Part shown: in pieces, positions 33,536 through 54,460 of the stretch | How the letters are laid out: every line of letters starts with the position of its first letter | How positions within the stretch are numbered: position 1 is the first letter of the stretch | Assembly (NCBI GenBank): GCA_052034585.1 | Contig: JBPOIJ010000034.1 | Location: 19,797-83,796 of the forward strand | Source of the DNA: Myxococcota bacterium | GTDB lineage: Bacteria; Myxococcota; Myxococcia; Myxococcales; Myxococcaceae | Direction: 5' to 3' | Length of the DNA: 64,000 bases | The notes under the pieces: generated by a model | What the model was told of the DNA's origin: nothing | Database searches by the model: none | What the model saw: only the letters and a program-made list of their open reading frames with translations | Program-made: the position numbers and the translations under genes

Positions 33536-34972
33536 TCAGTCGTCGAACGCGCACCGAAAGGGGAGCCGCTCGGTCGCGCGCTCTTCGACGAGCTCCTCCG
33601 ACTCGACGCGGAAGACGGCACGCCCGAGGGTGGCGATGGCCCGGTGCCACTCCGACAGTCGAGCGAGCCGTTTGCCGGCCCAGCGCGCATAGGCCCTCGC
33701 GTCCTCGAGCTCGACGACGATGGGGAGCGCCCCGAGATTCGGCGGAGGCGTCGCGCCACCCCACTCCGAGGGCGGAGCGCGGTGCGTCCCCAGACAGAAG
33801 CGCGCATACTCGTCGTGCGTCACCGGGCGCTCGTCGAGGAGCAGCTCTCCCACTCGCACCATCGGCCTCGCATCTCGCCCGGGCCACTCGCGCTCGAGCA
33901 CCTCGTCGTCCTCTTCGTCCGTCGGCGTCGCCGCGCTGCGGAGCGGGAAGGCCGGGAGGTCGACCGGCACCAGCGACGACGCCGCGAGGGTGGCGCCGAA
34001 GTGGCCCAGGTCGAGCCGCGCCATCTCGTCCTCGAGCGCCCATGCCGCCGCCCGCTCGTTGGGAAAAGTGCGCTCGAGCACCGCGGCAAGCGCGGTCGCC
34101 TGCGCAGGTCCGACGTGGTCCTGAACCTTGGCGAAGGTGGCGAGCAGCGCGCCCCACGACGGAAAGCGCGCGGTCGGCTCTCGCTGCAAGCACCGCTCGG
34201 CGAAGGCCTCGACCGACGCAGGGAGCCCAGCGCGACGCTCGCGCAACGGCCGGGGGCGCTCGGTGAGGAGCTGGCGAATGAACTCGAAGCCCTCCCCGGG
34301 AAACGCCGAGGCGCCGGTGAGCAACTCGTGGAGCACGAGCCCAGCGGTGAACATCGGGGAGAACGGGCTCGGCGGCAGGCCCCGCACCTGCTCGGGCGAC
34401 AGGTAGCGCGCGGCCCGGAGCGGCATCGTCACCATCGCGCCGGCGGCCATCGTGCGCTCCGAGAGGGTCGCGGCGTCGAGCTCGGCCCGCACCTCGCCCT
34501 GCCAAGCGAAGGTGAGCTCCGCGGCGTCGAGCCCCAGGCCGTCCGTCTGTCGACGGCTCAGCTCCGCCCAGGCGCGAAGCAGCGGCTCCAACACGCCAAG
34601 CGCGAGCCCGGCTGGCAGGTCGGTCATGGGCGTGGCGTGCACGAGCTCGTCGAGGGTGACGTCGCCCGGAGGCGCCTCGACGAGCGCCACCACCTCGAGC
34701 GACTCGTTGGCGAGCGCTGCGAGGAGCGATGGGAAGGCGCGGCTCGTCACCGTCATCAGCAGCCGGCCCCGACGACGGAGCAGCGCCTCGTGCTGACGAA
34801 AGAGCTCGGGGTCGCCGCGGAGAGGCGAGGCGAGCTCGCGCACCACGCAGAGCCGAGGTCGCGCATCGTGGATGACGATGGCGCGAGAGCGCGCGAACCA
34901 GCCGTCGCTCCACTCGGGCCCAATGACGAGCGCCGGGCCCACCCAGCGCGTGGGTCGAACGAGCGACTTCAT
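33536..34972 (-). CDS. kinase-like (pseudokinase) domain fused to an FGE-sulfatase/SUMF1-like domain
   Basis: 478 aa. Retains the YLSPEQ (APE-like) and LHELLTG lobe. No GxGxxG, VAIK, HRD or DFG is recognisable. C-terminus ERPVTHDEYARFC...DARAYARWAGKRLARLSEW is FGE-like. ATGA overlap with the upstream gene. Confidence 0.75.
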   Translation of the reverse strand: MKSLVRPTRWVGPALVIGPEWSDGWFARSRAIVIHDARPRLCVVRELASPLRGDPELFRQHEALLRRRGRLLMTVTSRAFPSLLAALANESLEVVALVEAPPGDVTLDELVHATPMTDLPAGLALGVLEPLLRAWAELSRRQTDGLGLDAAELTFAWQGEVRAELDAATLSERTMAAGAMVTMPLRAARYLSPEQVRGLPPSPFSPMFTAGLVLHELLTGASAFPGEGFEFIRQLLTERPRPLRERRAGLPASVEAFAERCLQREPTARFPSWGALLATFAKVQDHVGPAQATALAAVLERTFPNERAAAWALEDEMARLDLGHFGATLAASSLVPVDLPAFPLRSAATPTDEEDDEVLEREWPGRDARPMVRVGELLLDERPVTHDEYARFCLGTHRAPPSEWGGATPPPNLGALPIVVELEDARAYARWAGKRLARLSEWHRAIATLGRAVFRVESEELVEERATERLPFRCAFDD

Positions 34973-35628
34973 CGGGCCTCCAGGGCGACGAAGGTGGCGA
35001 GGCTGCGAGCGCGAACGCTGGCGAGCGGAGCGATGCGCACGTCGAGGCTCACCCGGGTCATCGGCTCCTCCACCACCTGCGCGCCGTGCAGGTGCAAGGG
35101 CGTGAACAACAGCACCTCGCCCTTCTTCACCTCGAGCGGCGGCAGTCGGTGGCGGGTGAAGGCAGGGTCGTCATCGAGCAACCGCTTCGACTCGGCGAAG
35201 GGCACCGCGTGGAGCGCCGCCGTGCGTCGCGCGTCCGTCAGGGCGAACCAGAGGTTCCGCTCGTCGAGGCCGTGGCCGATGTGATGATCGGTGTGGACTG
35301 GCACCGGTGAGACCTGGTCTTTCGGCACCAGCACCCGGAAGTGCGGAATCGCCTGCACCGCGACGGCCTCGAAGGGCAGCTCCGGCAGCGCCGCGCGAAC
35401 GAGCGCATTCACCAGCGCCCGCGCCTCGTGGCCGTCACCCTCGAAGCAGAGCGCCCGCGACGCCTCGAGCGCCTTCGCCGGGTCGAGCACCTCGTGGGCC
35501 CGCGCGAGCGACGCGACCTGGTGTCCCCTCGAGCGGAGCCGTTCGAGCACCCAGGCCTCCAGCGCCGAGACGTCGACCCGCCGCCGCTCCAGGTCCCACG
35601 CGGGGAGGAAGCCGGTGAGCCTCGGCAC
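34969..35628 (-). CDS. Fe(II)/2-oxoglutarate-dependent oxygenase (PhyH-like)
   Basis: 219 aa. HTD (HxD) followed ~60 aa later by LHLHGA and RVSLDVR, the pattern of the double-stranded beta-helix facial triad plus 2OG-binding Arg. Confidence 0.65.
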   Translation of the reverse strand: MPRLTGFLPAWDLERRRVDVSALEAWVLERLRSRGHQVASLARAHEVLDPAKALEASRALCFEGDGHEARALVNALVRAALPELPFEAVAVQAIPHFRVLVPKDQVSPVPVHTDHHIGHGLDERNLWFALTDARRTAALHAVPFAESKRLLDDDPAFTRHRLPPLEVKKGEVLLFTPLHLHGAQVVEEPMTRVSLDVRIAPLASVRARSLATFVALEAR

Positions 35629-35631
35629 CGC

Positions 35632-36078
35632 TCACCTCATCGATTCGACGGTGATGGCTCCGAGGAACTTCTGCTTGCCGATGATGCCCACCGTGTTCTC
35701 GGCGTCTTCCGTCTTGGTGATGCCGAGGTGCACCACCAGCACGGCCGCGTCGGAGGCGAGCGCGATGGGCACGCCTGCCTGCTGCGAGATGACGGACTCG
35801 ACGCACACCACCGCGAGCCCGCCCGCCGAGATGTGCTGCGTCATCTCGACGATGAGCTTCGCGACGCCCGCCTTCTCGTGCCCCTCGGCGAGGAAGAGCC
35901 GGGTCGGTGCGCCGCGGGCGAGCTTGGCGACCTCCACCATCGCGTCGGCAATCTGACTCGCCGACATCGTCGGGCTCGCGGGCACCACCACCAACGACTG
36001 CCAGCTGCCGCGCATCACGCCGAGCAGCTGCTGGTAGACCTGTTGGCTCAGCTTCGGCTGTGCGTCGTGCTTGCTCAC
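35632..36078 (-). CDS. degenerate MinD/BY-kinase-like P-loop domain lacking Walker motifs
   Basis: 148 aa. SLVVVPASPTMSAS sits where Walker A (GxxGxGKS/T) belongs. VVCVES...ASDAAVLVVHLGITK...FLGAI mirrors the BY-kinase C-terminal half. GTGA overlap with the GT2 gene. Confidence 0.6.
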   Translation of the reverse strand: MSKHDAQPKLSQQVYQQLLGVMRGSWQSLVVVPASPTMSASQIADAMVEVAKLARGAPTRLFLAEGHEKAGVAKLIVEMTQHISAGGLAVVCVESVISQQAGVPIALASDAAVLVVHLGITKTEDAENTVGIIGKQKFLGAITVESMR

Positions 36079-37286
36079 TTCGTCTCGCCCTCACGCGTGG
36101 TGCGCACCCAGGTCTGAGGTTTCTGCGACGCCTTGCCTCGAAAGGCCAGCATCACTTTCCACACCACGTAGGCGGGCGCGAAGGCGAGATCGACGAGGCC
36201 TCGCAGCCCCGTCTTCGAGTGGAGCCAACCCGCGGTGACGTAGAGCCACAACGCGAAGGCCGAGAGCGAGAAGAGCGACGCCGGCAGCAGCACCCATCGG
36301 CTGGGCAGGAAGAAGGCCAAGGCCGCGGCGGCGATCATCCCGCCCACCGTGGCGACGGCGATGCGGCTCAGCGGAGGCACCAGCACGTCCATCGCGAGAT
36401 CGAAGAGCAGCCCACTCCGAACCGAGAGCGCCTCACGAAGGAGCGGCCAGCCGTGCAGCTTCGCCATCTGCGCGCGGCCATGCTCCCAGCGGTTGCGCTG
36501 CGAGCGCGACGCCTGCTCACCCGACACCATCTCGCCCAGCACGTCGGCCTCGCCCACCCAGACGACGCGATGGCCGCGCTTGCCGATGCGAATGCCGTAC
36601 TCGAGGTCTTCCACCAGCGAGAACGCGTCGTGCGGCACCTCGGCGAGCAGCTTGGCCGAGAAGCACATGCCGTTGCCGCGCAGCCCGCAGGAGACACCGA
36701 GCCGCTCTCGGCCGGTGGAGCGCACCTGATGAAACATGGCCAGCGCGATGCGCATCAGCCGGGTGCGCCACGAGGCGTTGGGGTTCGAGACGCCGTAGTG
36801 CGCCTGCATGGCCGTCGCGCCCGCCGCCAAGCGCGCCGAGAAGGCCGAGAGGAGGTTGGGCGAGACGAGGGTGTCGGCGTCCACCACGCAGCAGGCGTCG
36901 GCCTTGAACGCGTCCTTGGCGCTCCACTCGAAGGCGTAGGCGAGCGCGAAGCCCTTGCCGCGGCGCTCGGTGTCGGTGCGCTCGAGCACGGTCGCGCCAG
37001 CTTCCCGCGCCTTCTGGGCGGTGTCGTCGGAGCAGTTGTCGGCGACCACCACGACGCGCCGCAGCTCGGGTGGATAGGCGATGGCGAGCAGGCTCTTCAC
37101 CGTCTGCGCGATGCCGAGCGCTTCGTCGTGGGCGGGCACCACGAGATCGAACCGGTGCGTCGGCGGCGAGGGAGGCGTCGGCGCAGGAACGGGCCGCGAG
37201 AGGAGCGCGAGCACGCCGAGATACCCAGTGGTGAAGAGCACCGGCAGCGCCAGCACCGCGAGCGCCAGCGCCAGGGCCTCGTTCAC
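36075..37286 (-). CDS. membrane-embedded GT2 glycosyltransferase with Q(R/Q)xRW motif (synthase-like)
   Basis: VVPAHDE, VADNCSDDT, VVDADT, VEDLEY and QRNRWEHG motifs. TM helices at both termini. Start placed at the GTG overlapping the PCP stop (GTGA). Confidence 0.9.
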   Translation of the reverse strand: MNEALALALAVLALPVLFTTGYLGVLALLSRPVPAPTPPSPPTHRFDLVVPAHDEALGIAQTVKSLLAIAYPPELRRVVVVADNCSDDTAQKAREAGATVLERTDTERRGKGFALAYAFEWSAKDAFKADACCVVDADTLVSPNLLSAFSARLAAGATAMQAHYGVSNPNASWRTRLMRIALAMFHQVRSTGRERLGVSCGLRGNGMCFSAKLLAEVPHDAFSLVEDLEYGIRIGKRGHRVVWVGEADVLGEMVSGEQASRSQRNRWEHGRAQMAKLHGWPLLREALSVRSGLLFDLAMDVLVPPLSRIAVATVGGMIAAAALAFFLPSRWVLLPASLFSLSAFALWLYVTAGWLHSKTGLRGLVDLAFAPAYVVWKVMLAFRGKASQKPQTWVRTTREGETK

Positions 37287-38782
37287 GGCAGCTTCACCTG
37301 ACTCAACACAGGAATCTCGAGGCGGCGCGAGACCTGCCACGCCTCGACGAGCGTTCGGCTCCGCACGTCCCTCACCGCGCCGATGCAGAGGGCGACGACG
37401 AGGGAGAGGAAGAAGGCACCTCCGAGGAGCACCGCAGCGTTCGGTGAGGCGGGCTTCTTCGGCACCGACGCGGGCCGCACCACCGAGTAGCGGTACTTGA
37501 ACGCTGCGCGCGCGGTGTCCTGCTCGATGCGGGCGCCGTCGATGCGCATCATCAGCTCTTCGTACTTGGCGGCCGCGACCCGGAGGTTGTTGCGAGCGTG
37601 CTCGACGAGCGGGTCTTCGGACAGCTCGGAGAGGGAGAGCGCGGCTTGGGTCTGCTGGCGGCGGGGCGCGGGCCGGCTCGGACGGCTCGGCTCGACCAAC
37701 GCGTCGGGGTCCTTCCCGCCCTTGCGGTGGTACTCGGCGATGAGCTGCTCGATGTCTTGCTTCACCTGCGACATCTGCGGCGAGTCGAGCTTCATCTGCT
37801 CGATGCGCTGCTGGGCGTCGATGACGACGGGGTGTTGGTCGGCGTACTGAACGCGGAACTCCTGCAGCTGAGCGGTGAGCTCCTGGAGCCGGCGGCTGCG
37901 GAAGTCCTCCAGGTCGGCCAGCGCGCGCTTCTTCGAGTTGAGGAGGAACTTGAGCTGGGCGAGCTCCTGCTCGGTCGCCGCGGGCGGCGCGTTGGGCGTG
38001 GGCTCGGGCGCCGACGGAGGGTTCACCACGGGCGAGGCCGTCTCACCAATCGGGGTCGGCACGTTGGGGCCAGGCGCGCCACCCTTGCGCCGCTCGTCCC
38101 GCACCCGCTCGAGCTCGTGGAGCGCGTCGTCGACGGCCTTCTGCACCTGCGAAGCATGGGACTCGAGAATGGCGAGGGCTTCGCTGATGGCGGTCATCTC
38201 GGTGACGTGCCGGGTCTCGAGGAAGTTCTGCTGCGCCGTCTCGACCAACAGGTAGGCGGTCTGCGCGTCTTGCCAGTCGATGCTGATGTTCACCGTCTGG
38301 GCGTCGGTCTCGACCCGAAGCCGCTTCTCGAGCGTGCCCACCATCGCGTCCATGCGGTCTTCGTCGGTGAGCGGCCCGCTCACCAGCCGCATCGCGAGGT
38401 CCTTCACCTTCACCACCGGTGGGCGGTGCTCTTCCCAGGCCTTGAGCAGGTTCGTCTGCTTGATGAGCGAGACGAGGTTGTCGTGGGCGAAGATGAGCTC
38501 ACGCGCGGCACGCGTCGGGTCCTCGGAGCGCACGCTCGACCGCGGGTTGCCCAGCGCGCGAATGATCTCGTTCTGGTTGGCGAGCAGCTTCGCCTCGGCG
38601 TGCCAGGTGCGAGGAACGAGGAAGGCCCCTGCGACACCGGCACCCAGCGTCACTACGAAGGCCAGCAGCGAGAGGAGCCGGTGCCGACGAACGCCACGAA
38701 ACACGAAGCCGATGATGTTGCGAATGAGCGCGTAGTCGAAGAGATCGAGCGACTCTTCCTTCGTCGGCGTCGCTTGGCTCAC
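37283..38782 (-). CDS. polysaccharide co-polymerase (Wzz/GumC/Wzc-type) without kinase domain
   Basis: 499 aa from VSQATPTKEE. TM1, long coiled-coil periplasmic region, Pro-rich segment, C-terminal TM (AVLLGGAFFLSLVVALCIGAV). No Walker motifs. GTGA overlap with the CheY stop. Confidence 0.85.
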   Translation of the reverse strand: MSQATPTKEESLDLFDYALIRNIIGFVFRGVRRHRLLSLLAFVVTLGAGVAGAFLVPRTWHAEAKLLANQNEIIRALGNPRSSVRSEDPTRAARELIFAHDNLVSLIKQTNLLKAWEEHRPPVVKVKDLAMRLVSGPLTDEDRMDAMVGTLEKRLRVETDAQTVNISIDWQDAQTAYLLVETAQQNFLETRHVTEMTAISEALAILESHASQVQKAVDDALHELERVRDERRKGGAPGPNVPTPIGETASPVVNPPSAPEPTPNAPPAATEQELAQLKFLLNSKKRALADLEDFRSRRLQELTAQLQEFRVQYADQHPVVIDAQQRIEQMKLDSPQMSQVKQDIEQLIAEYHRKGGKDPDALVEPSRPSRPAPRRQQTQAALSLSELSEDPLVEHARNNLRVAAAKYEELMMRIDGARIEQDTARAAFKYRYSVVRPASVPKKPASPNAAVLLGGAFFLSLVVALCIGAVRDVRSRTLVEAWQVSRRLEIPVLSQVKLP

Positions 38783-39165
38783 GTGCCGTCCTGGGAGAGC
38801 GTCTCCTTCACCAGCGCGACGAACTGCGACTGGGTGAAGGGCTTGGCGAGGTAGCGCTTGACGCCCAGCTCTTCGGCATAGGCCCGGTCTTCGGGCATCG
38901 TGCGTGCGCTGATCATCAGAATCGGGAGCCCCTTCAAGGTCGCCGAGTTTCGCACGTGATCGCACACGTCGTAACCGGAAGACTCCGGCAACATGAGATC
39001 GACGCAGAGAATGGAGGGCCGGCCCTCGTCGAGCTTCTTGATCGCCGCCCGCCCGTCCCCGGCGTAGCTCACCGTGAAGCCCATGCGGGTGAGGTAGGCG
39101 CCGATGACCTTGCGAATGTCTGGGTCGTCATCGACGACCAACGCTGTCTGGACCGAGTCTGTCAC
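38779..39165 (-). CDS. single-domain CheY-like response regulator
   Basis: 128 aa. VVDDDPD acidic pocket, phospho-acceptor in ILCVDLMLPE, conserved S/T (MISA) and K (LAKPF). Confidence 0.9.
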   Translation of the reverse strand: MTDSVQTALVVDDDPDIRKVIGAYLTRMGFTVSYAGDGRAAIKKLDEGRPSILCVDLMLPESSGYDVCDHVRNSATLKGLPILMISARTMPEDRAYAEELGVKRYLAKPFTQSQFVALVKETLSQDGT

Positions 39166-39211: not shown

Positions 39212-40420
39212 TCACCACGTGGTGCTGTCCTGGTCATGAAACTGGGCTCCGAGAGTGAGGGCCCAGAGCGTCGTGGGCGCACCTCCGAGCCGGGGCTGCG
39301 ACGTCCACACGAGGCGGCCCGTTCCGAGGAACGAGAGCCAGGTGGAGAAGGCCCAGGTGGCCGAGGCCTCGCTGAAGAGCGCAGTGTCTCCGGCTTGCGG
39401 CGATCGCCCGAGTGGAACCGCGTACCCCGCCCCGACCGAGGCCGTGACCGTCAGCTTCGACGTCGGGCGCGCGTTGCCTCCCAGCCGTCCCTCCAGGCGC
39501 TCGTAGACGAGGCCGGTGAAGCGATCGGCGAAGGGCGACATTCGCAACGAGGCGGTCAGCTGCACGGGCACACCGAACGGCTCGGGCGCCGCCGAGAGCG
39601 ACGCTGCGGCCACTGGGAGCACCTCGAGATGGAAGCCGGGCGGAGGCCCGTTGGGGATCTCCACCACCCGTTCTCGCGTCACCGCCGCACCGCCGCCGAG
39701 GGTGAGCACCGTGGTGCGCGCGAGCTGCCACTCGGCCGATTCCATGCCCAACATGATCGACTGCTCGGCACCCGTGATGAACGCCGCGTGGCTCGCCTGC
39801 CCGGTGGTGATGAGCCGAAAGCGACGACTGGCGACCCAGCGAAGACTCGCGAGCCCGACCGGGCCGTGCTGGAGCGGAAGCTGGAGGCCTCCGGAAGGGT
39901 CGCCCGAGAGCAGGTATGCGCCGCTCAGGGACAGCGCGACTCGGTCGGTCGGGCGCCAATCGAAGGCGAACGCCGAGGCAGAGCGCACGTAGCTCACCGC
40001 GCCGAGCGTCTGCACCTCGTAGACCCCGGTCGGCTGCGAGCCCGCCGGCAATCGGAGCGAGCCGATGTCGGCGGTGCCGTAGGCGCCATCTTGCCGGAGC
40101 GAGAACGACCACCGCTCGAAGCGCTTGGAATAGAGGAGCGACGCTTGATGGAGCGGGAGCACCCGCGGCCTGAGCTGCCACTCACGAATGATCAGCTGCG
40201 GGGCGTAGCGGAGCACCAGCGCCGAGTCCGACCAGGTGAGCCCGCCCTGCGCGAGGGGGTCGAGCTGGAAGTCGGAGGTGAGAATGGTGGCGGCGTCTCC
40301 CGGCAGCGGCGCCCGGCTGGTGAGCGACGTCGTGGCCGAGACCTCGTAGCCCACCACCGCGGCGAACCCTGGCGTCGCCCAGAGCGCCAGGAGCACGACG
40401 GTGGCGAGGCGAGCGTTCAT
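39212..40420 (-). CDS. outer-membrane beta-barrel protein (Wzp/EpsX-like porin candidate)
   Basis: 402 aa. Signal peptide ending FAAV, alternating-hydrophobicity strands throughout, C-terminal aromatic residue (…DSTTW). ATGA overlap with the OPX gene. Confidence 0.7.
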   Translation of the reverse strand: MNARLATVVLLALWATPGFAAVVGYEVSATTSLTSRAPLPGDAATILTSDFQLDPLAQGGLTWSDSALVLRYAPQLIIREWQLRPRVLPLHQASLLYSKRFERWSFSLRQDGAYGTADIGSLRLPAGSQPTGVYEVQTLGAVSYVRSASAFAFDWRPTDRVALSLSGAYLLSGDPSGGLQLPLQHGPVGLASLRWVASRRFRLITTGQASHAAFITGAEQSIMLGMESAEWQLARTTVLTLGGGAAVTRERVVEIPNGPPPGFHLEVLPVAAASLSAAPEPFGVPVQLTASLRMSPFADRFTGLVYERLEGRLGGNARPTSKLTVTASVGAGYAVPLGRSPQAGDTALFSEASATWAFSTWLSFLGTGRLVWTSQPRLGGAPTTLWALTLGAQFHDQDSTTW

Positions 40421-41010
40421 TCGGCGACGACGACGTCTTGTGGCAGCAGGAGGAACTTCACCGAGGCCGGGTCGCCGTTGGTCAGATCTTCCCAGGTGAA
40501 CCGAATGCGCACCGGCTTCACGGTGGGGCTCGGCTTGCGAATGACGAAGATGCCGTCCTTGTGAGCGAAGTCGGTGAGCCCACCGGCAGCGGCGATGGCG
40601 TGCACGACGCCGGCGCCTGGCTCGAGCACCACCACGCCTGGGCGAACGACCTCTCCGACGACCGAGACGTTGAGCGGCCGCATCTCTTCGAGCGACACGG
40701 TGACGACCGGCGTGTTGATGAACTCCTTGAGCCGCACCTGGAGCTCGGACGCGACCTGCGTCGGCATCTTGCCCGCCACCACCCAGTCGTTCACCAGCGG
40801 CAGCGACACCTTTCCATCGCCGCGCACCCTCACCCGCGCGCTCATCGCCTCTTGTTGGAAGACGCGAACCTGGAGCGTGTCACCGGGGCCGATGACGTAC
40901 TCGCCCGGCGCGGTGGCCCCATAGGCATCGACGGGAATGAAGACGCCTTTCGGCGCATAACAACTGGAGCCGACCAGCACGGCCAACGAGGCGAGCGACG
41001 CGCGGAGCAT
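40417..41010 (-). CDS. short outer-membrane polysaccharide export (OPX/Wza-family) lipoprotein
   Basis: 197 aa. Lipobox GSSC, Poly_export/PES motif YVIGPGDTLQVRVF, one SLBB-like domain (VSVVGEVVRPGVVVL). No C-terminal amphipathic helix domain. Confidence 0.85.
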   Translation of the reverse strand: MLRASLASLAVLVGSSCYAPKGVFIPVDAYGATAPGEYVIGPGDTLQVRVFQQEAMSARVRVRGDGKVSLPLVNDWVVAGKMPTQVASELQVRLKEFINTPVVTVSLEEMRPLNVSVVGEVVRPGVVVLEPGAGVVHAIAAAGGLTDFAHKDGIFVIRKPSPTVKPVRIRFTWEDLTNGDPASVKFLLLPQDVVVAE

Positions 41011-41061
41011 GCGCTGGTTCTGGCACGCGTTGAGTCGCGGTCAAGGGGACGAACCCGGTCG

Positions 41062-42138
41062 TCAGTCGAAGTAGTTCCCGACGACCTGCGCATTCGGCAC
41101 CCAGTCGCCGCACAGGTCGCCCGTCGAGTGGAAGACGAGCTTCTGGAGCACGCCCGACTGCACGCCCTCGTGATGCGCGACGTAGCTCGCGGCCTCGAAC
41201 ACCACCTCGACGGGGCCGCGGCGGTAGACCTCGTTCGAGTAGTAGTAGCCAGCCGTCATGCCGACGAAGGTCCAGCCGGGCCGGGTGACGAGCGCGTTCG
41301 ACATCACCTCCGCCATGAGCGCGTGCGCCGAGACGCGATGCCGTTCGATCCACGTCGCCTCGCGGCTGTCTCGATAGAGCGCGCCGAGCTCGGACAACGA
41401 GCGAAAGACCACCTGGCTCACCCCGAGCCGCTCCGCTTCGTCGAGATAGGCCTCGACCTCGGCCAGGGTGCCGACCGCCTGCGAGTTGAGAATGCACACG
41501 AGCTTGAGCTCGAGCCCCGTCGCGAGCACGTCACGCGCCGTTCGTTCGAACGCCGCACGCGCACGAATCGCGACGCCGTTGTCGAAGCGCATCACCCGAT
41601 GATTCACCGCTTCATCGAAGTGACAGCGTGAGAGTTCGATTCGATCGAAGCGGGCGCTCGCGAGCGCAGGCAGCAGACGGGCGTCGCACGCGAGGCCGGA
41701 GCCGTTCGTGTAGAGGACCCGGAGCGGAAAGAGTCCCTCGTGTGAACGCAGCAGCTCGAGCAACCCGAGCAGCCACTCGGGATCAGCCGTCGCCTCGAGC
41801 CCACTCAAGCTGAGGCCCATCGGAAAGCCGGCGAGCTCCGTCCAGGCGCGCGCGAGGCCGTCGAAGTACTGCCGCCGATCGCCGATGACCGTCTTCGCCG
41901 AGAGCCGGTTCGCGTCGAGCCGGAGCAGCTCTTCACTGCAGAACGAGCAGTGCGCGTTGCACGGCACTGGGTTCGCGTACGGGGTGAAGGTGAGGCCCGG
42001 ACGCAGGAGAAATGGTCTGCCGCGGAGCAGTCGCTCGACGGGCGCTGGAGGCTCGAAGCTGCGCCACTTGCCCTCGCGCAGCTCGCCCGGCGTGGTGATG
42101 TCCGCCGCGCGGCGAAACTGGTTGGGCCGAACCGTCAT
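41062..42138 (-). CDS. radical SAM enzyme (no SPASM/auxiliary Cys cluster evident)
   Basis: 358 aa. CNAHCSFC is a CX3CX2C motif near residue 60, with SLSGLEAT in the GGE-motif position. ATGA overlap with the upstream dioxygenase. Confidence 0.8.
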   Translation of the reverse strand: MTVRPNQFRRAADITTPGELREGKWRSFEPPAPVERLLRGRPFLLRPGLTFTPYANPVPCNAHCSFCSEELLRLDANRLSAKTVIGDRRQYFDGLARAWTELAGFPMGLSLSGLEATADPEWLLGLLELLRSHEGLFPLRVLYTNGSGLACDARLLPALASARFDRIELSRCHFDEAVNHRVMRFDNGVAIRARAAFERTARDVLATGLELKLVCILNSQAVGTLAEVEAYLDEAERLGVSQVVFRSLSELGALYRDSREATWIERHRVSAHALMAEVMSNALVTRPGWTFVGMTAGYYYSNEVYRRGPVEVVFEAASYVAHHEGVQSGVLQKLVFHSTGDLCGDWVPNAQVVGNYFD

Positions 42139-44576
42139 GGCGGCGGCCCTACGTCGACGACGCCCGCCATCGCCACCGCGAGCGAACGCGTACCGGAAAA
42201 CGCTTCCCGCGAGTGGCCGTAGCGAACGTTGTCACAGAGCAGGAGATCGCCCGCGCGCCACTGAGCGCCTTCGCGGGTCTCGAGAAAGCCGTGCAGCAGC
42301 AGGTCGAGCTCGCCGCGAGTGAACGGCCTGCCATCTCCGCGCGGATAGCGCCGGTGCCCGTTTCGAACGGACGGTGGATCGAGCGCGATTCGCGGAAACA
42401 ACAGTGAGCGCCCGCAAAACGCCGGAACTCGAATGCGCGTCATGAGCGTGGCGTGGCCGCCTCCTTCGTCCTTCCACCAGCACTCGTCGAACTGGTGCGT
42501 CGCGGCTCGACATCGGCGCGCGGCTTCGGCGCGGTCGGTGGTGGCGAAGCGCTCCTGCCAGGAACGGAAGAAGTTGAGGTGCCGTTCGGGGTGACCCTCG
42601 TCGACGAAGCCCATCTCGATGAGGAGCCCGTGCCGGCGCAGCCCATCGAGCAGCGAAGTGCCCCCGTTGGTGACGAGGAAACGTTCGAGCGCCGCGGCCT
42701 CGTGCACGAAGGTGCGTCCGCCCTGGTCCGGCTCGACGTCGCGCGCCGAGAAGAAGAGGAGCCGCGCGGGAATGGTGCGTTGGTAGAGCACCTCGTTGTG
42801 CGGGAGCAGCCAGAGGTGCGGTGGATACTCGTCGGTCGCGCGCAGCTCCGGGCTCAACGCGCGGCGAGTGGTGCGACCACTGCTCATCCCGCCCCAGGGG
42901 AACGAGTCGTTCGGCGAGAAGCCGAGCGCAGCGAGAATGGTCGTCGGGAGCGCGCCCGCGTGCTCGACCTCGATGCCGGTGTTCTGCACGAGCACCGCGC
43001 CATGACGATCGAACTCACGCCGAATGGCGGCACTGCGGGCGTCGTTCAGCGTTCCCTCGCCGTCGAAGACACGCACGCTGAAGCGCACGTCACGCCGAAC
43101 GAGCTCGGGCGGAAATGCGTACGCCTGAGGTCCATCGGTCGCGATCGGGCCCAGCGAGGACTCAGTGGGGAGGATCGGCGAGCTCGCGGCCCTCCCGACG
43201 CTAGCCGTCTCGTCGAGGACCGGCAGGGACGCACCGTCGTTCGCGTCGACTCGGTCCATCTCGGCAGGAGGTGGGCCATGGGCGTTCGACGAGGCTGGCG
43301 AGCGCGTCGACGAACCAGCCAGGTTGCTCGCGTGAGATGGCCCGGCTCGAACGCTCACGGCTCTCGCGCGCGGCACGAGCGTCGATGCATCGGGGTCGAG
43401 CGGAACGGTCGCGGGTTGCCCGTGATTGGCCCGCGCGCCTCGAACGAACGCGTCGCCGTTCAGCTCCGATGATGCATGCCCCATGGGCGGTCCTGAGTCC
43501 GCTTGGCCGATCGCTCCAGGCCCGTCGACAATCGTGACCAGCGCCGGGTCGTGAACCGACTCCGGCGAAGCACTGGACGCCCTCACCTCCCCCGCCATCG
43601 CGACGAGCACGTTCCGCTCACCGGTGAACGACTCACGCGAATGTCCGAAGCGCACGTTGTCGAAGAGCACGAGATCGCCCGCGCGCTGCGCCACGCCTTC
43701 ACGAGTCTCGAGCAGCACCGAGCGAACGACCTCTTCTTCATCCGGCGTCAGCGAACTCCCATCACCGAGCGGGAATCGTCGAAGACCATTCCGCGCAGCC
43801 GGCCCATCGAGCGCCACGCGCGGAAACCGGAGAAACCCGTCGCCCCACTTCGCCGCGAGGGTGATGCACGTCATCAGCGTCTGCTCCGGCCCCCACCAGC
43901 ACTGGTCGTGTTCGTCGCTCGCCGCGCTCGCCCGCCGCATCGCCTCGTCCGCGTCGTCGGTCTCGAAGCGTTCCTGCCACGACTGAAACGTGTTCGACGC
44001 CTTCTCCGGGTGCCGCGCGTCGAGGAAGCCGGTCTCGATGGACACGCCGTGACGGACCATGCGCTCGAGGAGAATGGGCGCGCGGCGTGCCAGCTCGGCC
44101 TCCACCGCCCGCGCGGAGTGAAGAAAGATCCGCCCTCCACTCGGAGCAACCCCGAGACAGGCGAAGAGCACCCAGCGTGGACTCGCTCGCCGGTACTGCA
44201 CCTCGTTGTTCGCGAGCAGGTAGAGGTCGGGCGGGTAGTAGTCGAGCCGACGGAGCCCAGGCGCGGCCCACTTCTCCTGCGTCGAGGCGGCCGTTCGTCC
44301 ACCGAGTGAGAACTGCTGCGACGGCCCGAAGCCGAGCGCAGGAAGCACCTCGACGACCTCCTCGACCCGAGTGAGCCCCGTTCCAGTGACGTGAAGCGCC
44401 CCGTGCCGCTCGAGCTCGATGCGCAGGCAACGCACCCCGAGTTCATCGAGCCGGCCGCGAGCGTCGAAGACCCGCCCGCTGAAGCGTTCGCCGCGCATCG
44501 CGACAGACCGTTCACGCCAACGCTCGACGGGCGACGTCACCAGCCCATCGTCGCAGGTGCTGCACCCATCCTCCAA
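42135..44576 (-). CDS. tandem TauD/clavaminate-synthase-like Fe(II)/2OG dioxygenase (two ~330-aa repeats joined by a low-complexity linker)
   Basis: 813-aa ORF. Repeat 2 has LLPHNEV...DNVRYGHSRE (HxE...H...R). Repeat 1 has LLANNEV...DNVRFGHSRE. Start uncertain: TTG 44576, GTG 44540 or ATG 44498. Confidence 0.7.
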   Translation of the reverse strand: MEDGCSTCDDGLVTSPVERWRERSVAMRGERFSGRVFDARGRLDELGVRCLRIELERHGALHVTGTGLTRVEEVVEVLPALGFGPSQQFSLGGRTAASTQEKWAAPGLRRLDYYPPDLYLLANNEVQYRRASPRWVLFACLGVAPSGGRIFLHSARAVEAELARRAPILLERMVRHGVSIETGFLDARHPEKASNTFQSWQERFETDDADEAMRRASAASDEHDQCWWGPEQTLMTCITLAAKWGDGFLRFPRVALDGPAARNGLRRFPLGDGSSLTPDEEEVVRSVLLETREGVAQRAGDLVLFDNVRFGHSRESFTGERNVLVAMAGEVRASSASPESVHDPALVTIVDGPGAIGQADSGPPMGHASSELNGDAFVRGARANHGQPATVPLDPDASTLVPRARAVSVRAGPSHASNLAGSSTRSPASSNAHGPPPAEMDRVDANDGASLPVLDETASVGRAASSPILPTESSLGPIATDGPQAYAFPPELVRRDVRFSVRVFDGEGTLNDARSAAIRREFDRHGAVLVQNTGIEVEHAGALPTTILAALGFSPNDSFPWGGMSSGRTTRRALSPELRATDEYPPHLWLLPHNEVLYQRTIPARLLFFSARDVEPDQGGRTFVHEAAALERFLVTNGGTSLLDGLRRHGLLIEMGFVDEGHPERHLNFFRSWQERFATTDRAEAARRCRAATHQFDECWWKDEGGGHATLMTRIRVPAFCGRSLLFPRIALDPPSVRNGHRRYPRGDGRPFTRGELDLLLHGFLETREGAQWRAGDLLLCDNVRYGHSREAFSGTRSLAVAMAGVVDVGPPP

Positions 44577-44582
44577 CCGTCG

Positions 44583-46082
44583 TTACTTGGAGATGTTCTC
44601 CTTCAGGATCTGCCCCAAGACGATTCGGTCGGCGACGAGCCAGCGGCCAATCGGCGTCACCGAGCCACCCCGGCTGTACTTTCGAATCGTGTAGTACACG
44701 AGCTGGTACTTCTCGCCGTGCGCCTCCGCGAGGCAGACCTGAAACTCGTCGTACACGCGCGGGTAGGTCGTGACGATGAGGTAGTCGCCCTGCTCGCGGG
44801 TGTCGGTGCTGGTGGTGCTCACGTGCTGGAGCGCCGAGTTGATCACCATTCGCTCCCACGAGGAGTAGCCCGCCGCCTTGATCGCAGTCGTCGCCGTGCT
44901 CATCAGCCCCGAATCGGTCGAGCGCGCTGACGGCATTCGGGTCGCCTCGAGCGCCGCGCGCGCCTGCGAGAGCACCACGTCGACGTGCGCGCGATACTTT
45001 CTCGCGAGGGCGAGGCTCTCGGGGTCCTTCTTGCCCAGCCACTGCTCCCGGTACGTCGCCAGCGCCTCGGCCCCTTCAGCGCCATCTTTCAGGCCTTCGA
45101 TGATGTCCTTGATGACGCGGTGAGGGGCGTTGTTCTCGATCGCCCACTTCCCGCGCCCCATGAGCTGGAAGAACGCTCCCGCGCGCCCGCCGTTCGAGGC
45201 CGGGTTCTCGCTCGCCACGTCGGCCAGACACGAATCGAGCTTGGTGCCGAGGTGCATCGAGAACTCCACCTCGAGCCGCTTGAGCCGCTCGTCACGGGAG
45301 AACGCGGGGTGCTCGGCCTCGAGGTGTTCGAGGTGGGTGACGCCCTTCTCGCGGAGCTTCTGGTACTGCCGCATGTCGCCCAGCCACTCGCCGATGCGCG
45401 CCGGGCTGTAGGGCCGCTTGAGCTTGCAGTCGAAGGTGGGTCCGAACACGGCGGCGAGCTCGTCGAGTTGCTGGCCCACGTCCTTCGCTTCGGCGGCGAA
45501 CGCGGCGGCCTTCTCCTCGGCGGCCTTCTTTCCCGCGGCGACCTTCTCGGCGAGCTTCACCTCGAACTGGTCGATGCTCGCGCGAGCGGCGACGACCTGC
45601 GGGTGCTGCTGATCCCCGACTCGCTCGAGCGCGCTCCGCATCTGCTGCGCGGCACCTTTCAGCGAGATTCGATCGATCGCCGCGATGGGATCGATGGCAG
45701 CGAGCTCCTCCTGATAGCGCTCGGCGACCTTCTGGTACTCCTCGAAGTAGTGCCGATCGATCGACCCCATGGCGACCTCGGCGCCCGCAGCCGGTGCTTC
45801 TCCAGTCGACGCCGCGAGCCCCTTGGCGCGAATGCGGTCGATGAGCGCGGTCGAGCGATCGACCTGTGCCTTCCACGCCGCGTCCCGGTTGCGCAGCTTC
45901 CCGAACTCGGTGCGAACACCGTTCACCTTGAGCACCAGCGAGTTGGCGGTCGCGCGATCCCCCGCTCGAAGGAGCTCGGCTTGCTGCTCGATGGCGTCGA
46001 GCTGGGCCTGCAGCTCGGGAAGCTCGGCCAGCGCGACCGTCGCGGCGAAAGCCATCAGGACGACTGCCAGACGATTGGGCAT
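44583..46082 (-). CDS. secreted protein of unknown function, coiled-coil-rich N-terminal half
   Basis: 499 aa. Signal peptide MPNRLAVVLMAFAATVALA. Coding-like GC3. Ends 6 nt before the dioxygenase ORF. Confidence 0.7.
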   Translation of the reverse strand: MPNRLAVVLMAFAATVALAELPELQAQLDAIEQQAELLRAGDRATANSLVLKVNGVRTEFGKLRNRDAAWKAQVDRSTALIDRIRAKGLAASTGEAPAAGAEVAMGSIDRHYFEEYQKVAERYQEELAAIDPIAAIDRISLKGAAQQMRSALERVGDQQHPQVVAARASIDQFEVKLAEKVAAGKKAAEEKAAAFAAEAKDVGQQLDELAAVFGPTFDCKLKRPYSPARIGEWLGDMRQYQKLREKGVTHLEHLEAEHPAFSRDERLKRLEVEFSMHLGTKLDSCLADVASENPASNGGRAGAFFQLMGRGKWAIENNAPHRVIKDIIEGLKDGAEGAEALATYREQWLGKKDPESLALARKYRAHVDVVLSQARAALEATRMPSARSTDSGLMSTATTAIKAAGYSSWERMVINSALQHVSTTSTDTREQGDYLIVTTYPRVYDEFQVCLAEAHGEKYQLVYYTIRKYSRGGSVTPIGRWLVADRIVLGQILKENISK

Positions 46083-46188
46083 TCGAAGCTCGTGGGTGGA
46101 GAGGAAGAGGAGACGACGCTCGAGGACTTCGCGACGGGACGCGCGATTCTGACACGCAGCCCGAAGGTCCCGGAATCACTTCGGCTCC

Positions 46189-46440
46189 ATGGTGTCCCGC
46201 GGCGATGCGCTCGCGCGTCTTCTCCGGAACGTGAAGACGCTCCCCACTGGCTACAGCTCAAGCCACTTCGCCAGCCGCGAGCTCGCCAGGCAGATCGAGC
46301 GGTTCACCACGCTGACGAGCGCGCCTCCCGTTCGCGGGGCCTTCGGAGCAGCCGATCAGTGGGAGACCGTCGACGCTCGCTCGGCGCCACGAACGAAGAC
46401 GTCGAACGACCACCGCGACCAGCAGGCTCGGCAGCGCTGA
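46189..46440 (+). other. possible 83-aa antisense-oriented ORF or gene remnant
   Basis: High GC3 across the ORF, inside an otherwise unexplained 377-bp gap in a minus-strand operon. No motif recognised. Confidence 0.25.
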
Positions 46441-46459
46441 CTCGCCATCTCCAGGCTCA

Positions 46460-47974
46460 TCAGGCCTGTGCACCCACCTCGGGACCAGCCAGGGCCGGCT
46501 CCTTCTTCCTCGCGGTCTTCACGAAGGCGATGAGCTCCTTCACCTTCACCGCGCCCGAGCCAATCACCAACACCACGTAGACGAGCCCATCGGCGCCGAG
46601 CCGCACGAACGGGTGCACCCGCTCGAGCAGGTACCAATCGAGCGCCGAGACGAGCACGCAGGCCACCACCGTTCTCGCGATGACGCTCAGGCTCCGGGCA
46701 TCGAACGCACGCCGGCCCACCAACGCCGTCATCGCCACCGTCACGACGATCTCCGTCCCCAGCTGCGCGATGGCCGCGCCGATGCCCGCCCCGCCCTGCC
46801 CGAACCAGCGCGTCGACGGCCCGATGAAGATGGCGTTGAGCACCGGGTTCGCGACGAGCCCACCGATGGAGATGAAGGCCTGCGTCCACGCCCGCCCGGT
46901 GAGGATGAGCGCGTTCGACGAGAGGATCGCCACGTAGGTGAGCACGAAGATGCTCGCGAGCACCTTGAGCGAGGTCGCCGCCGGCGCGAAGGCTGGGCCG
47001 TAGAGCAAGGTGATCCACTCCTTCGCGCCCAGCGCCATGAAGAGCGAGGTGGGGAACGCGATGGCGAGCACGAGCTCGAGGCTGCGCCGCATCACCTGGG
47101 TGTACTCCTCGTCGGAGCGGGCCCGCGCGCGCGCGAAGAGCGGCATCAGCACCCAGCCGATCATCGGCGTCACCATCAGCGCGAGGCCGGCGATGAGGCT
47201 CGAGGCGCCGTACCAGCCGACCTCCTCTTCCCCCGCCACCACCGCGAGGATGCTCACGTCGAGCTTGTTGTAGATGGTGTGCGCCGCGAGGTTCACGACC
47301 ATCGGCAGCGAGGCGGCGATGGCCAACCTGGTCGCCTTCACGTCGACCCGCCACGTCATCGCGAGGTGCTTGGTGACGAGCCGGGTGCTGACGACGGTCT
47401 TGAGCCCTTCCGACGCCACCACCGCGAGCGCCACCGTCCACAGCGGCCACTTCATCACCACCGCGAGCAGCGTCCCTCCGCCCCAGACGATCTTCGAGGC
47501 GATGTTGAGGAACGACAGCTCGTTCACCGTGCCTCGCGCGTGGAGCAGCGCGGCCAGGCTCTGGTTGAAGGTGAAGAAGAGCGCCGAGACGCCGTAGAGG
47601 TGCACCACCAGCCACGTCTCGGGCGGCCGGTTCGTCAGCATGAGGAACGCCTGGGTCACCCCGAAGAGGAGCAGCGCGACCAGCATGCGCAGCGCGGTGA
47701 CGCCGCCGTAGAACTCCGAGGCGTGCTGGTAGCGGACCGAGACCTCCTTGCGGATGTAGGTGTCGACGCCGAAGCCCGCGAGCACGAAGAGCGTCGAGGT
47801 GAAGGCGTCGGCGAAGTTCACCACCCCGAAGCCCTGCGGCCCGAGGTAGCGCGGCAGGAGCAGCCGCACTCCGAGCGCGATGCCCCAGGTGACCATCAAG
47901 GAGCCGAACAGCTTCACCGCGTTCTTCGCGGCGAGCTTGGTGTCCTTCTCGGCCGTCGAAGACGCGTCGGACAT
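46460..47974 (-). CDS. wzx: Wzx-type polysaccharide flippase (MOP superfamily)
   Basis: 504 aa with ~12-14 TM segments. N-terminal KNAVKLFGSLMVTWGIALGVRLLLPRYLGPQGFG is typical of the polysaccharide biosynthesis protein family. Confidence 0.9.
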   Translation of the reverse strand: MSDASSTAEKDTKLAAKNAVKLFGSLMVTWGIALGVRLLLPRYLGPQGFGVVNFADAFTSTLFVLAGFGVDTYIRKEVSVRYQHASEFYGGVTALRMLVALLLFGVTQAFLMLTNRPPETWLVVHLYGVSALFFTFNQSLAALLHARGTVNELSFLNIASKIVWGGGTLLAVVMKWPLWTVALAVVASEGLKTVVSTRLVTKHLAMTWRVDVKATRLAIAASLPMVVNLAAHTIYNKLDVSILAVVAGEEEVGWYGASSLIAGLALMVTPMIGWVLMPLFARARARSDEEYTQVMRRSLELVLAIAFPTSLFMALGAKEWITLLYGPAFAPAATSLKVLASIFVLTYVAILSSNALILTGRAWTQAFISIGGLVANPVLNAIFIGPSTRWFGQGGAGIGAAIAQLGTEIVVTVAMTALVGRRAFDARSLSVIARTVVACVLVSALDWYLLERVHPFVRLGADGLVYVVLVIGSGAVKVKELIAFVKTARKKEPALAGPEVGAQA

Positions 47975-48094: not shown

Positions 48095-49477
48095 TCAGCT
48101 CGCGCCCCTGCCCGTCAGCACCACCGGGAAGGTCTTCAAGATGAGGCTGATGTCCTTCGTGAAGCTCCAGGTGTCGATGTACTGGAGGTCCATGTACATC
48201 CACTGCTCGAAGGAGATCTCGTTGCGGCCCGAGACCTGCCAGATGCAGGTGAGGCCGGGGCGAACCGAGAGCCGGCGGCGCTGCCAGGACTGATACTTCG
48301 CGACCTCCTGCGGAACGGGCGGGCGCGGGCCCACGACGCTCATGTCACCACGGAGCACGTTGATGAGCTGCGGCAGCTCGTCGATGGAGAACTTCCGGAG
48401 GAAGCGGCCGATGGAGGTGATGCGCGGGTCCCTCTTCATCTTGAAGACCGGCCCGTCCATCTCGTTCTGCTCGGCGAGCTTGGCCTTCAGCTCCTCGGCG
48501 TTCACCACCATCGTGCGGAACTTCAGCATGCGGAACGGGCGGCCGTGCAGCCCGACCCGCGTCTGGCGGAAGAGCACCGGGCCACGCGAGGTGAGCTTGA
48601 TGAGCGCCGCCACCGTGAGCAGCAAGGGCGCGAGCAGCCAGAGCGCGATGCCCGAGGAGAGGATGTCGAAGGCGCGCTTGAAGGCCATCGCCACCGGGCG
48701 CGAGGCGACCGTCTGGTAGTGGAGGTAGCCGTCCTTCACGCCGTGAGTGCCCAAGGGGCGCGCGCGGTCGAAGCGGAACATCGAGGCGGGGAGCGCGAAC
48801 GGAATGCCGAAGGCCTCGCACACCTTGATGGCCTTCTGGGTCTCGGGCGCGTTCGCGACGGAGTTCGAGGCGAAGTACACCTCGGCGACCGGCATCGTGC
48901 GCAGCACCGAGTCGAGGTCGGTGGTGGTGCCCAGCGTCTGGCCCTTGAGCTGCGACGGCGTGGTCTCGTCGGCGTAGCGAACGAAGCCGGCGACCTGCAT
49001 GCGGCCGTTCTTCTTCACCTCGTCAGCGGTCGCCCGGCCGAGCGGCCCGACGCCCACGATGAGCACGTCGTCGATGGGGCCCGACTGGCTCGAGAAGTTG
49101 CGGAAGACGGAGAACCGCATGCCGATGGCGAGCGGCCAGAGGATGAGGAGGAAGACGCCGACGTTCGGCAGCCCTTCCATGCGGAAGATGAGGCTCGCCA
49201 CCGCCAACACCGTGGTGACCGCCAGCACGAGCACCGACGTCATCGCCGCGTCGTCCGGCGCGCTGCGCTCAGACGCCCACGGGTCGTAGTGCCGCAACGA
49301 CATCGCGATGATGAGCCAGGTCAGCAGCGCCGGAATGGCCATGCCGAGCGCGATGGACTCGAAGCCGCCGTGGATCCACGAGGCTGCTGCCAAGGCGATG
49401 AGGACGAGGAGCAGGTCGAGCAGGAAGCTGACCCGCGCCACGAACCCTGCTGCGATTCGCCCGAAAAGTGAGTTCAT
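48095..49477 (-). CDS. polyprenyl-phosphate glycosyl-1-phosphate transferase (WbaP/EpsZ-type PHPT)
   Basis: 460 aa. C-terminal bacterial sugar transferase domain: KRAFDI, LKFRTM, DELPQLINVLRGDMSVVGPRP. Confidence 0.95.
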   Translation of the reverse strand: MNSLFGRIAAGFVARVSFLLDLLLVLIALAAASWIHGGFESIALGMAIPALLTWLIIAMSLRHYDPWASERSAPDDAAMTSVLVLAVTTVLAVASLIFRMEGLPNVGVFLLILWPLAIGMRFSVFRNFSSQSGPIDDVLIVGVGPLGRATADEVKKNGRMQVAGFVRYADETTPSQLKGQTLGTTTDLDSVLRTMPVAEVYFASNSVANAPETQKAIKVCEAFGIPFALPASMFRFDRARPLGTHGVKDGYLHYQTVASRPVAMAFKRAFDILSSGIALWLLAPLLLTVAALIKLTSRGPVLFRQTRVGLHGRPFRMLKFRTMVVNAEELKAKLAEQNEMDGPVFKMKRDPRITSIGRFLRKFSIDELPQLINVLRGDMSVVGPRPPVPQEVAKYQSWQRRRLSVRPGLTCIWQVSGRNEISFEQWMYMDLQYIDTWSFTKDISLILKTFPVVLTGRGAS

Positions 49478-52371: not shown

Positions 52372-52545
52372 TCAGGTCCCGAGCCGGGGCAGCACCACCC
52401 GCACGAAGAAGGCGTAGGTGACGTGGAGGAGGACGAGCCCCAACAACGCGAACCGCAGCCCTCGCACGGGGTGCCGTTGCCTCGCCGCCAGCACCGGAAT
52501 GCCGATGAGCCCGATGACGATGGAGAGGAGGAGGAGCTTGCTCAC
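52372..52545 (-). CDS. 57-aa two-TM membrane microprotein
   Basis: GTG start forms a GTGA overlap with the GH44 stop. Its own stop lies 1 nt before the PCP-Wzy ATG. Two hydrophobic helices (LLLLSIVIGLIGIPVLA; FALLGLVLLHVTYAFFVRVV). Confidence 0.5.
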   Translation of the reverse strand: MSKLLLLSIVIGLIGIPVLAARQRHPVRGLRFALLGLVLLHVTYAFFVRVVLPRLGT

Positions 52546-54299: not shown

Positions 54300-54460
54300 C
54301 GTGCACCTCACGTCAGGACTGCACCGGGAACACAGGCTGGGCTTCGCCTCACCCGGTGCAAGGCGGAGCTCTGAGCCGCATCGACTTCGAGTTCGCGAAC
54401 ACAACGTGCGCGCGTCAGAGTAAGGCGGGCGTAGCACTTCTCAAGGAGCGCGTCGCCCGC

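Follow-up and report, generated by a model that had tools for sequence, protein, structure and literature searches.

Two related TauD-type domains in one reading frame

The stretch of DNA analysed here (the window) comprises 64,000 nucleotides of contig JBPOIJ010000034.1 from a Myxococcota bacterium. Within it lies an open reading frame (ORF) for a two-domain protein of the TauD family, which probably joins a catalytic oxygenase domain to a conserved but non-canonical partner, and which is followed by a gene for a radical S-adenosylmethionine (SAM) protein (Table 1). Residues are numbered throughout on the 813-amino-acid (aa) ORF counted from its TTG codon. The residue numbers given in an earlier reading of the sequence (the original prediction) are exact on this ORF, and the sole correction concerns the start. 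Since the homologues and the database copy of the protein (P0001, 787 aa) begin at M27, this ATG is probably the true start, so that the product would have 787 aa and the first 26 residues would be untranslated.

A Pfam scan of the protein returned PF02668 (TauD/TfdA) alone, with 65 bits against a cut-off of 27 (E 1.3e-17), in four stretches that span both halves. When aa 1-340 were compared with aa 481-813 by BLASTP, the resulting alignment, of aa 28-331 to aa 495-807, spanned 315 columns with 48% identity (E 2e-81). The similarity of the two halves is far above chance, and the two colinear repeats of the original prediction are thereby borne out. We refer to the N-terminal and C-terminal copies as the N-type and H-type domains, after the residue at the first iron-ligand position.

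Table 1. Features at the locus and in its surroundings. Positions are those of the window, except where a locus handle precedes them.
Feature	Position	Strand	Remarks
Two-domain TauD-family ORF	42135..44576	(-)	813 codons from TTG; no stop or frameshift inside
Probable start codon, M27 (ATG)	44496-44498	(-)	
N-type domain, aa 27-331	43584..44498	(-)	TauD/double-stranded β-helix (DSBH) fold, non-canonical site
N-type residues N123; E125; H312	44208-44210; 44202-44204; 43641-43643	(-)	plus R314 and R321
Linker, aa 332-484	43125..43583	(-)	disordered, Ala/Ser/Pro/Gly-rich (composition, AlphaFold)
H-type domain, aa 485-813	42138..43124	(-)	canonical Fe(II)/2-oxoglutarate (2OG) site
H-type triad H593; E595; H788	42798-42800; 42792-42794; 42213-42215	(-)	
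H-type putative 2OG contacts R568; T622; R797	42873-42875; 42711-42713; 42186-42188	(-)	also R790
Radical SAM gene, 358 aa	41062..42138	(-)	C60xxxC64xxC67; ATG overlaps the dioxygenase stop (ATGA)
Third cassette gene at other loci	L004-L025, L043, L042; e.g. L043:9076-9627, L025:11163-11693, L042:9086-9580		
499-aa ORF	44583-46082	(-)	N-terminal signal-peptide-like segment; immediately upstream of the dioxygenase
EpsY-like exporter	40417-41010	(-)	
Wzz-like	37283-38965	(-)	
GT2	36075-37340	(-)	
Wzx flippase	46460-47974	(-)	
Initiating sugar transferase	48095-49477	(-)	
GH44	52542-54437	(-)	
Small PhyH-like dioxygenase	34969-35628	(-)	inside the same polysaccharide cluster
Protein with weak FGE-sulfatase and protein-kinase matches	33536-34972	(-)	inside the same polysaccharide cluster

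Iron-site and 2-oxoglutarate-site residues

The first half has the motif LLANNEV from aa 120 and the second LLPHNEV from aa 590; GHSRE is found at aa 311 and 787. The alignment of the halves pairs N123 with H593, N124 with N594 and E125 with E595, showing that the first His has become Asn in the N-terminal domain (codons AAC for N123 and CAC for H593). At the positions of R568 and T622 of the H-type domain, the N-type domain has S98 and I150. T622 lies in a GGxT motif, whose Thr in TauD (Thr126) we take to contact the C5-carboxylate of 2OG.

H593, E595, H788, R568 and R797 align with His115, Glu117, His308, Arg92 and Arg317 of the sulfoquinovose enzyme MaSqoD. In the structure paper on MaSqoD, His115, Glu117 and His308 are the iron ligands seen by crystallography and Arg92 is a 2OG contact (PMC12951627). 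The H-type domain thus possesses the facial triad together with the 2OG-binding Arg, and the N-type domain has neither the complete triad nor the 2OG-binding Arg and Thr. Aligning the halves, which the original prediction had proposed as a check, therefore upheld its reading on both sides: the colinear second repeat carries a triad (H593-N-E595...H788) that maps onto the MaSqoD ligands, and the first repeat has lost the first His and retained GHSRE.

A small family with fused and split members

A search covering 5.8 billion proteins found 83 relatives, nearly all of them 600–750 aa long with two domains, and labelled only as 'TauD/TfdA family dioxygenase' or hypothetical. Every complete member has LLP-N-NE in the first half and LLP-H-NE in the second, and the order N-type then H-type is common to more than 100 relatives. 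With the N-type domain as the HMMER query against 1.84 billion representatives, 27 clusters (50% identity) were recovered at E 1e-30 or better, below which scores fall sharply to generic single-domain TauD proteins at about 50–60 bits, some of them in nonribosomal peptide synthetase (NRPS) modules. On these sequence criteria the family is small, distinct, divergent and sharply delimited.

The relatives belong to Myxococcota, Legionella and Leptospiraceae and to metagenome-assembled genomes (MAGs) labelled Alphaproteobacteria, Micavibrio or Bdellovibrionales. Taxonomic labels of MAGs may mislead, and one 'Alphaproteobacteria' contig (L010) looks myxobacterial. Predatory or host-associated bacteria hold most of the family (Myxococcota, Bdellovibrionales, Micavibrio, Legionella and Leptospiraceae; loci L002, L026-L040), and ankyrin-repeat and U-box genes neighbour the Legionella and Micavibrio loci. 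Among the representatives, P0271, a distant relative with a single TauD domain, is fused to a GFO/IDH/MocA oxidoreductase; this fusion is reminiscent of how the sulfoquinovose pathway combines a dioxygenase with a reductase.

Scanning one genome per species located 38 loci. The two domains form a single ORF in Myxococcota (Archangium, Myxococcaceae, Polyangiales) and Legionella, as they do at a Leptospiraceae locus that came from a separate search, and the fused form occurs in about 90 proteins. Orthologues encoded as separate genes, whose existence the original prediction had asked about, are carried by some 11 independent contigs of MAGs with the labels Alphaproteobacteria, Micavibrio, Bdellovibrionales or 'Patescibacteria'. 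There, the upstream gene encodes an N-type protein of about 320 aa (LLPNGEI), and the gene that directly follows it an H-type protein of about 360–380 aa (LLPHNEI). By Rosetta-stone logic, such split and adjacent orthologues speak for a physical complex. A neighbour-joining tree separates the N-type and the H-type domains into two clades, labelling outliers aside, which points to one old duplication prior to the radiation of the family; the split forms make up a single subclade. The H-type domain closes with a conserved FWTDD tail in Legionella and the split lineages (L002:8001-10127, L028-L040), and this tail is absent in the Myxococcota proteins, including that of the window.

The same comparison bears on whether the fused gene is an artefact, in which an assembly or sequencing error joined adjacent genes or a base-call error turned a His codon into Asn. 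That the halves are separate genes in some lineages, that AAC is one base from CAC, and that the linker of the window protein is unusually long, with a GC content at third codon positions (GC3) of 0.74 against 0.81, would fit such an error. It is nevertheless extremely improbable: about 90 independent homologues are likewise fused, in the same order and with this same Asn, the nearest relatives (72–79% identity) are fused with linkers of about 30 aa, and the reading frame is open throughout. Fusion by assembly error, which the original prediction had named as a possible refutation, is ruled out by the retention of the fusion in these proteins.

The linker itself (aa 332-495, 164 residues) contains 27 Ala, 22 Ser, 21 Pro and 15 Gly, and its GC3 of 0.74 compares with 0.81–0.82 in the domains. 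The spacing between the domains is 279 residues in the window protein against a family median of 152 (range 124–193 elsewhere), which corresponds to about 125 extra residues relative to the nearest relatives. Tandem repeats were sought in the linker as its origin and none were found. The Ser/Ala/Pro-rich linker of about 160 aa described in the original prediction is hence present in the window but is not a family feature, some 125 aa of it being specific to the window. This insertion is lineage-specific and, by AlphaFold, disordered, and it is probably functionally neutral.

Conservation of the N-type and H-type domains

The family alignment holds about 107 copies of each domain type. At the first triad position the N-type copies have Asn in 104 of 107, Ser in two and His in none; the Glu is kept in all of them and the distal His in about 102. 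The H-type copies read H-x-E...H...R...R nearly throughout, with HNEHRR in 95 of the 106 labelled copies, the other 11 being HQE variants, truncated or gapped copies and one mislabelled N-type. Conservation of R568 and T622 is at least 99% among the H-type copies, whereas the N-type copies vary at both positions. Codons for the N-type Asn are both AAC (30) and AAT (11), each one base from a His codon, which indicates that the Asn is held by selection and not by shared descent. Overall constraint is similar, mean identity being 54.6% for N-type vs 57.4% for H-type over 4005 matched pairs. The N-type domains have invariant residues of their own, R94, Q100, W103 and E202, the first three of which lie on the same lid loop.

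No N-type-specific conserved His able to replace the lost ligand was found in the family alignment, where the only other conserved His (H153/H625) is common to both types. The loss of the His hence stands against the possibility, raised in the original prediction, that it is supplied from a shifted position. The word 'degenerate', used there for this site, is a little misleading: the site has been altered and then fixed and is not in decay, since the Asn, the Glu and the distal His are under strong purifying selection.

This degree of conservation could also mean that both domains are active and that the Asn/Glu/His site of the N-type domain carries out a second and different reaction, possibly with another metal or without 2OG, in a bifunctional two-step enzyme; the Asn might, for instance, be a weak ligand. 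The Asn, Glu and distal His of the N-type domain are each at least 96% conserved, with synonymous codon variation at the Asn, R314 and R321 are retained, conservation nearly equals that of the H-type domain, and the invariant lid-loop residues suggest a specific ligand. We nonetheless consider a second active site unlikely. N-type domains have lost the equivalents of R568 and T622, positions at which they vary, and a few deep-branching members have lost the N-type distal His or Arg (NNEVKM, NPEQRR, SAEHKL), which an essential catalytic site would not tolerate. We are also unaware of any Fe/2OG oxygenase that functions with Asn at the position of the first His, and the literature searched yielded none.

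Predicted structure and comparison with known proteins

The AlphaFold model of the protein, built with a 52-sequence alignment, has a predicted local distance difference test (pLDDT) score of 83.7 and a predicted template modelling (pTM) score of 0.82. Both domains exceed a pLDDT of 90 and the linker alone is below 50; 131 residues are disordered and about 650 of 787 ordered. From the definition of pTM, a value of 0.82 despite 131 disordered residues implies a confident relative placement of the domains. The model thus gives indirect support to a pseudo-dimer, in which the two domains would hold one fixed mutual arrangement.

Foldseek placed At3g21360 (1Y0Z) first, with a template modelling (TM) score of 0.71–0.73, followed by PvcB, TauD, TmpA, AAD-1, PlaO1 and BBOX1, with a probability of 1.00 for the top matches. 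A sequence search of the PDB gave At3g21360 at 2.5e-11 and MaSqoD at 8e-7. At3g21360 (1Y0Z/2Q4A) and MaSqoD (9YUT-9YUX; PMC12951627) are therefore the best PDB matches by sequence and fold. They have in common with the window protein the DSBH fold, the H-x-E...H spacing, a lid-loop Arg contacting 2OG and H-x-R-x6-R, but they are single-domain proteins without an Asn-type paralogous partner and only about 20% identical to each half. Identity as a SqoD was rejected on this low similarity and on the residues that recognize sulfoquinovose, which are Gln120 and Trp253 in SqoD (PMC12951627): Tyr598 occupies the place of Gln120 in the alignment, and the 3-residue insertion that contains Trp253 is missing from the window protein.

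In NCBIfam no model covers the family, and the equivalog matches are local and confined to the DN..R..H.R motif. A clavaminate synthase was rejected (ClavSyn_CS1, 23.7 against a cut-off of 450), as were VioC/AsnO-type and carnitine-pathway enzymes (TMLD, 30.1 against 268; BBOX, 17.1 against 415; GntD, 14.2 against 345). The nearest outside relatives, at 48–60 bits among the 1.84 billion representatives, are TauD hydroxylases that stand alone or are embedded in NRPSs (A-T-C-TauD). They share PF02668 and the same C-terminal DN..R..H.R-type motif with the window protein; they have, however, one domain with a complete triad and score 117–153 bits for PF02668, whereas the two domains of the window protein together reach 65. 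No NRPS genes lie near the family in the loci examined. Functional altered triads exist elsewhere, in halogenases (HxA/G...H) and in AspH with two His only. These lose the carboxylate and keep both His, whereas the N-type domain keeps the carboxylate, has Asn for the first His and has lost 2OG residues as well.

Two DSBH domains per chain, with Fe and 2OG in one only, are found in Tpa1/Ofd1/OGFOD1 (PMC2847220, PMC4396695), and in Tpa1 the silent domain forms part of the surface of the active domain's substrate pocket (PMC2847220). These eukaryotic prolyl-hydroxylase-like proteins document a parallel in a different branch of the superfamily, the likeness being architectural only. They combine a prolyl-hydroxylase-type N-terminal domain with a C-terminal Ofd1_CTDD domain, and belong to PF03171 and PF10637 as cited in PMC2847220 and not to PF02668, the only family returned by our Pfam scan, and membership was rejected on this basis. 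Their active domain is N-terminal, whereas that of the window protein is C-terminal. The halves of Tpa1 have no detectable sequence similarity, in contrast to the 48% identity seen here, where the silent half keeps two of three triad residues. Split-gene forms, present in the family of the window protein, are not described for Tpa1/Ofd1/OGFOD1. In the full-text literature searched, no tandem, heterodimeric or pseudo-enzyme TauD-family proteins of this kind are described.

A radical SAM gene linked to the dioxygenase in Myxococcota

The dioxygenase stop codon and the ATG of the radical SAM gene overlap, and the two genes are predicted from this arrangement to be translationally coupled in Myxococcota. 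In all 23 Myxococcota-type loci that extend far enough downstream (one of them labelled Alphaproteobacteria), the next gene is the radical SAM gene, at 54–78% identity; it is also found downstream in a Leptospiraceae genome. C60, C64 and C67 are invariant in the homologues and form a single cluster motif, with no second one. PF04055 is present in some homologues, the radical SAM protein of the window being below Pfam reporting; it has the CX3CX2C motif and partial TIM-barrel fold of the radical SAM superfamily. Among known structures, MoaA and viperin are the closest to its AlphaFold model (pLDDT 91.9), which also matches SuiB and NifB, all four with a Foldseek probability of 1.00. MoaA and viperin both act on nucleoside triphosphates. 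The TM-score to viperin is 0.5–0.64, similar to that of the MoaA match, and the sequence matches to viperins are weak (pVip in PADLOC, 15 bits, E 0.003; NCBIfam viperin_w_prok, 11.9 against a cut-off of 180).

In 21 loci, the radical SAM gene is overlapped at its end by a third gene, which codes for about 165–180 aa, shows a G[ST]...DxD...D pattern and matches nucleotidyltransferases only weakly. It is missing in the window, in Archangium violaceum and in A. minus. Sequence searches of the PDB with profiles of the radical SAM protein and of the third gene gave no meaningful match. In Legionella, the dioxygenase is followed by a conserved 264-aa protein without a Pfam family (L002:10169-10963; L026, L027, L035). 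The possibility that this is a divergent radical SAM protein was rejected, as there is no similarity.

A probable catalytic domain with a constrained partner

We propose that the window protein is a single-chain heterodimer, in which the C-terminal Fe(II)/2OG domain is catalytic and the N-type domain is a non-canonical partner under constraint, and we put the probability of this reading at about 0.65. Two old paralogous DSBH domains of the TauD/At3g21360 type would lie in one chain. To judge from its residues, the H-type domain would be an Fe(II)/2OG oxygenase that binds iron through H593, E595 and H788 and probably holds 2OG through R568 on the lid loop, T622 and R797. The N-type domain would replace the second protomer of the ancestral homodimer. 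It is most likely silent in 2OG-dependent oxygen activation, because Asn replaces the first His and the lid-loop Arg and the Thr are lost. As its constraint is close to the H-type level and it has invariant residues of its own (R94, Q100, W103), the N-type domain probably acts as an obligate structural or substrate-binding partner that helps stability or substrate binding. In Myxococcota and Leptospiraceae, the protein would be part of a small cassette with the viperin/MoaA-like radical SAM protein and, usually, the minimal nucleotidyltransferase-like protein; the substrate would probably be a single small molecule common to them and possibly nucleotide-derived. The original prediction had left a choice between a pseudo-enzyme partner fused to a catalytic unit and a repeat with altered metal ligation. 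The former is now supported, since the loss of two further 2OG-site residues from the N-type domain favours a pseudo-enzyme partner over a second active site.

Several observations tell against this proposal or parts of it. The Glu, the distal His and both C-terminal Arg are kept in the N-type domain, which is unexpected for a purely structural domain, and to judge by these residues there may be space for a working metal or ligand site. The 2OG role given to T622 is putative, by analogy with Thr126 of TauD. The radical SAM gene is absent from Legionella and from the split-gene lineages, and in Rhodocytophaga rosea the radical SAM gene and the third gene occur without any dioxygenase. The Rhodocytophaga pair and the lineages lacking the partner together imply that the dioxygenase and radical SAM modules are separable and were joined in Myxococcota. 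A nucleotide-derived substrate is a weak guess from the partner genes alone, in view of the score of the pVip match, and no biochemical data on any family member were found in the literature searched.

The N-type domain might instead be a ligand-sensing or regulatory module, which binds an effector or product and gates the catalytic domain, rather than serving as a passive scaffold or as a catalyst. Its remodelled and conserved pocket, the retained Arg and the N-type-specific R94, Q100 and W103 agree with such a role, and Ofd1/Tpa1 provide a precedent for two DSBH domains that divide their tasks within a single chain. We regard a regulatory module as very doubtful; the idea overlaps with that of a structural or substrate-binding partner, and sequence cannot separate the two. 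A bolder proposal is that the protein is an obligate heteromeric TauD-type oxygenase whose N-type Asn-Glu-His site is a new type of working metal or ligand centre. With the radical SAM protein and the nucleotidyltransferase it would make or modify a small molecule, possibly nucleotide-derived, in predatory or host-associated Myxococcota, Bdellovibrionales, Micavibrio and Legionella. Taken as a whole, this is quite unlikely.

For the single-chain heterodimer that we prefer, the fold, the H-type chemistry and the idea of a dead paralogous partner are already known. What is new is that the TauD family includes a conserved N-type/H-type pair in whose N-type member the first iron-ligand position is fixed as Asn, and that this pair occurs in fused and split forms and in linkage with a radical SAM gene. 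TauD-family Fe(II)/2OG oxygenases are normally treated as homo-oligomers of identical active subunits. Here one subunit would have turned into a conserved non-canonical partner, and both fusion and fission have occurred across a phylogenetically wide clade. The family may thus serve as a natural system for what a 'dead' oxygenase protomer adds, be it stability, substrate binding or gating, and it offers a test of metal binding by an Asn-Glu-His site. It also draws attention to an uncharacterised three-gene cassette of dioxygenase pair, radical SAM protein and nucleotidyltransferase-like protein. For annotation, the N-type genes of the split lineages should not be labelled active dioxygenases.

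Surrounding genes in the window

A scan of 40300-46600 for promoters and terminators gave nothing above chance. The 499-aa ORF has no Pfam, NCBIfam or PADLOC match, and PADLOC, which covers anti-phage defence, gave none for the dioxygenase or the third gene either. The 499-aa ORF was rejected as a member of the unit, as the upstream genes in Archangium and Leptospiraceae are not its homologues and all other loci lack it.

Positions 29381-54437 of the window hold a long co-directional array on the minus strand, a Wzx/Wzy-type exopolysaccharide (EPS) cluster. The dioxygenase/radical SAM pair and the 499-aa ORF are placed between its Wzx and EpsY genes. The EPS context was rejected as a functional clue, because no other locus of the family has EpsY or EPS genes nearby. 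The further genes of the cluster that are listed in Table 1 include a second, small dioxygenase of the PhyH-like type.

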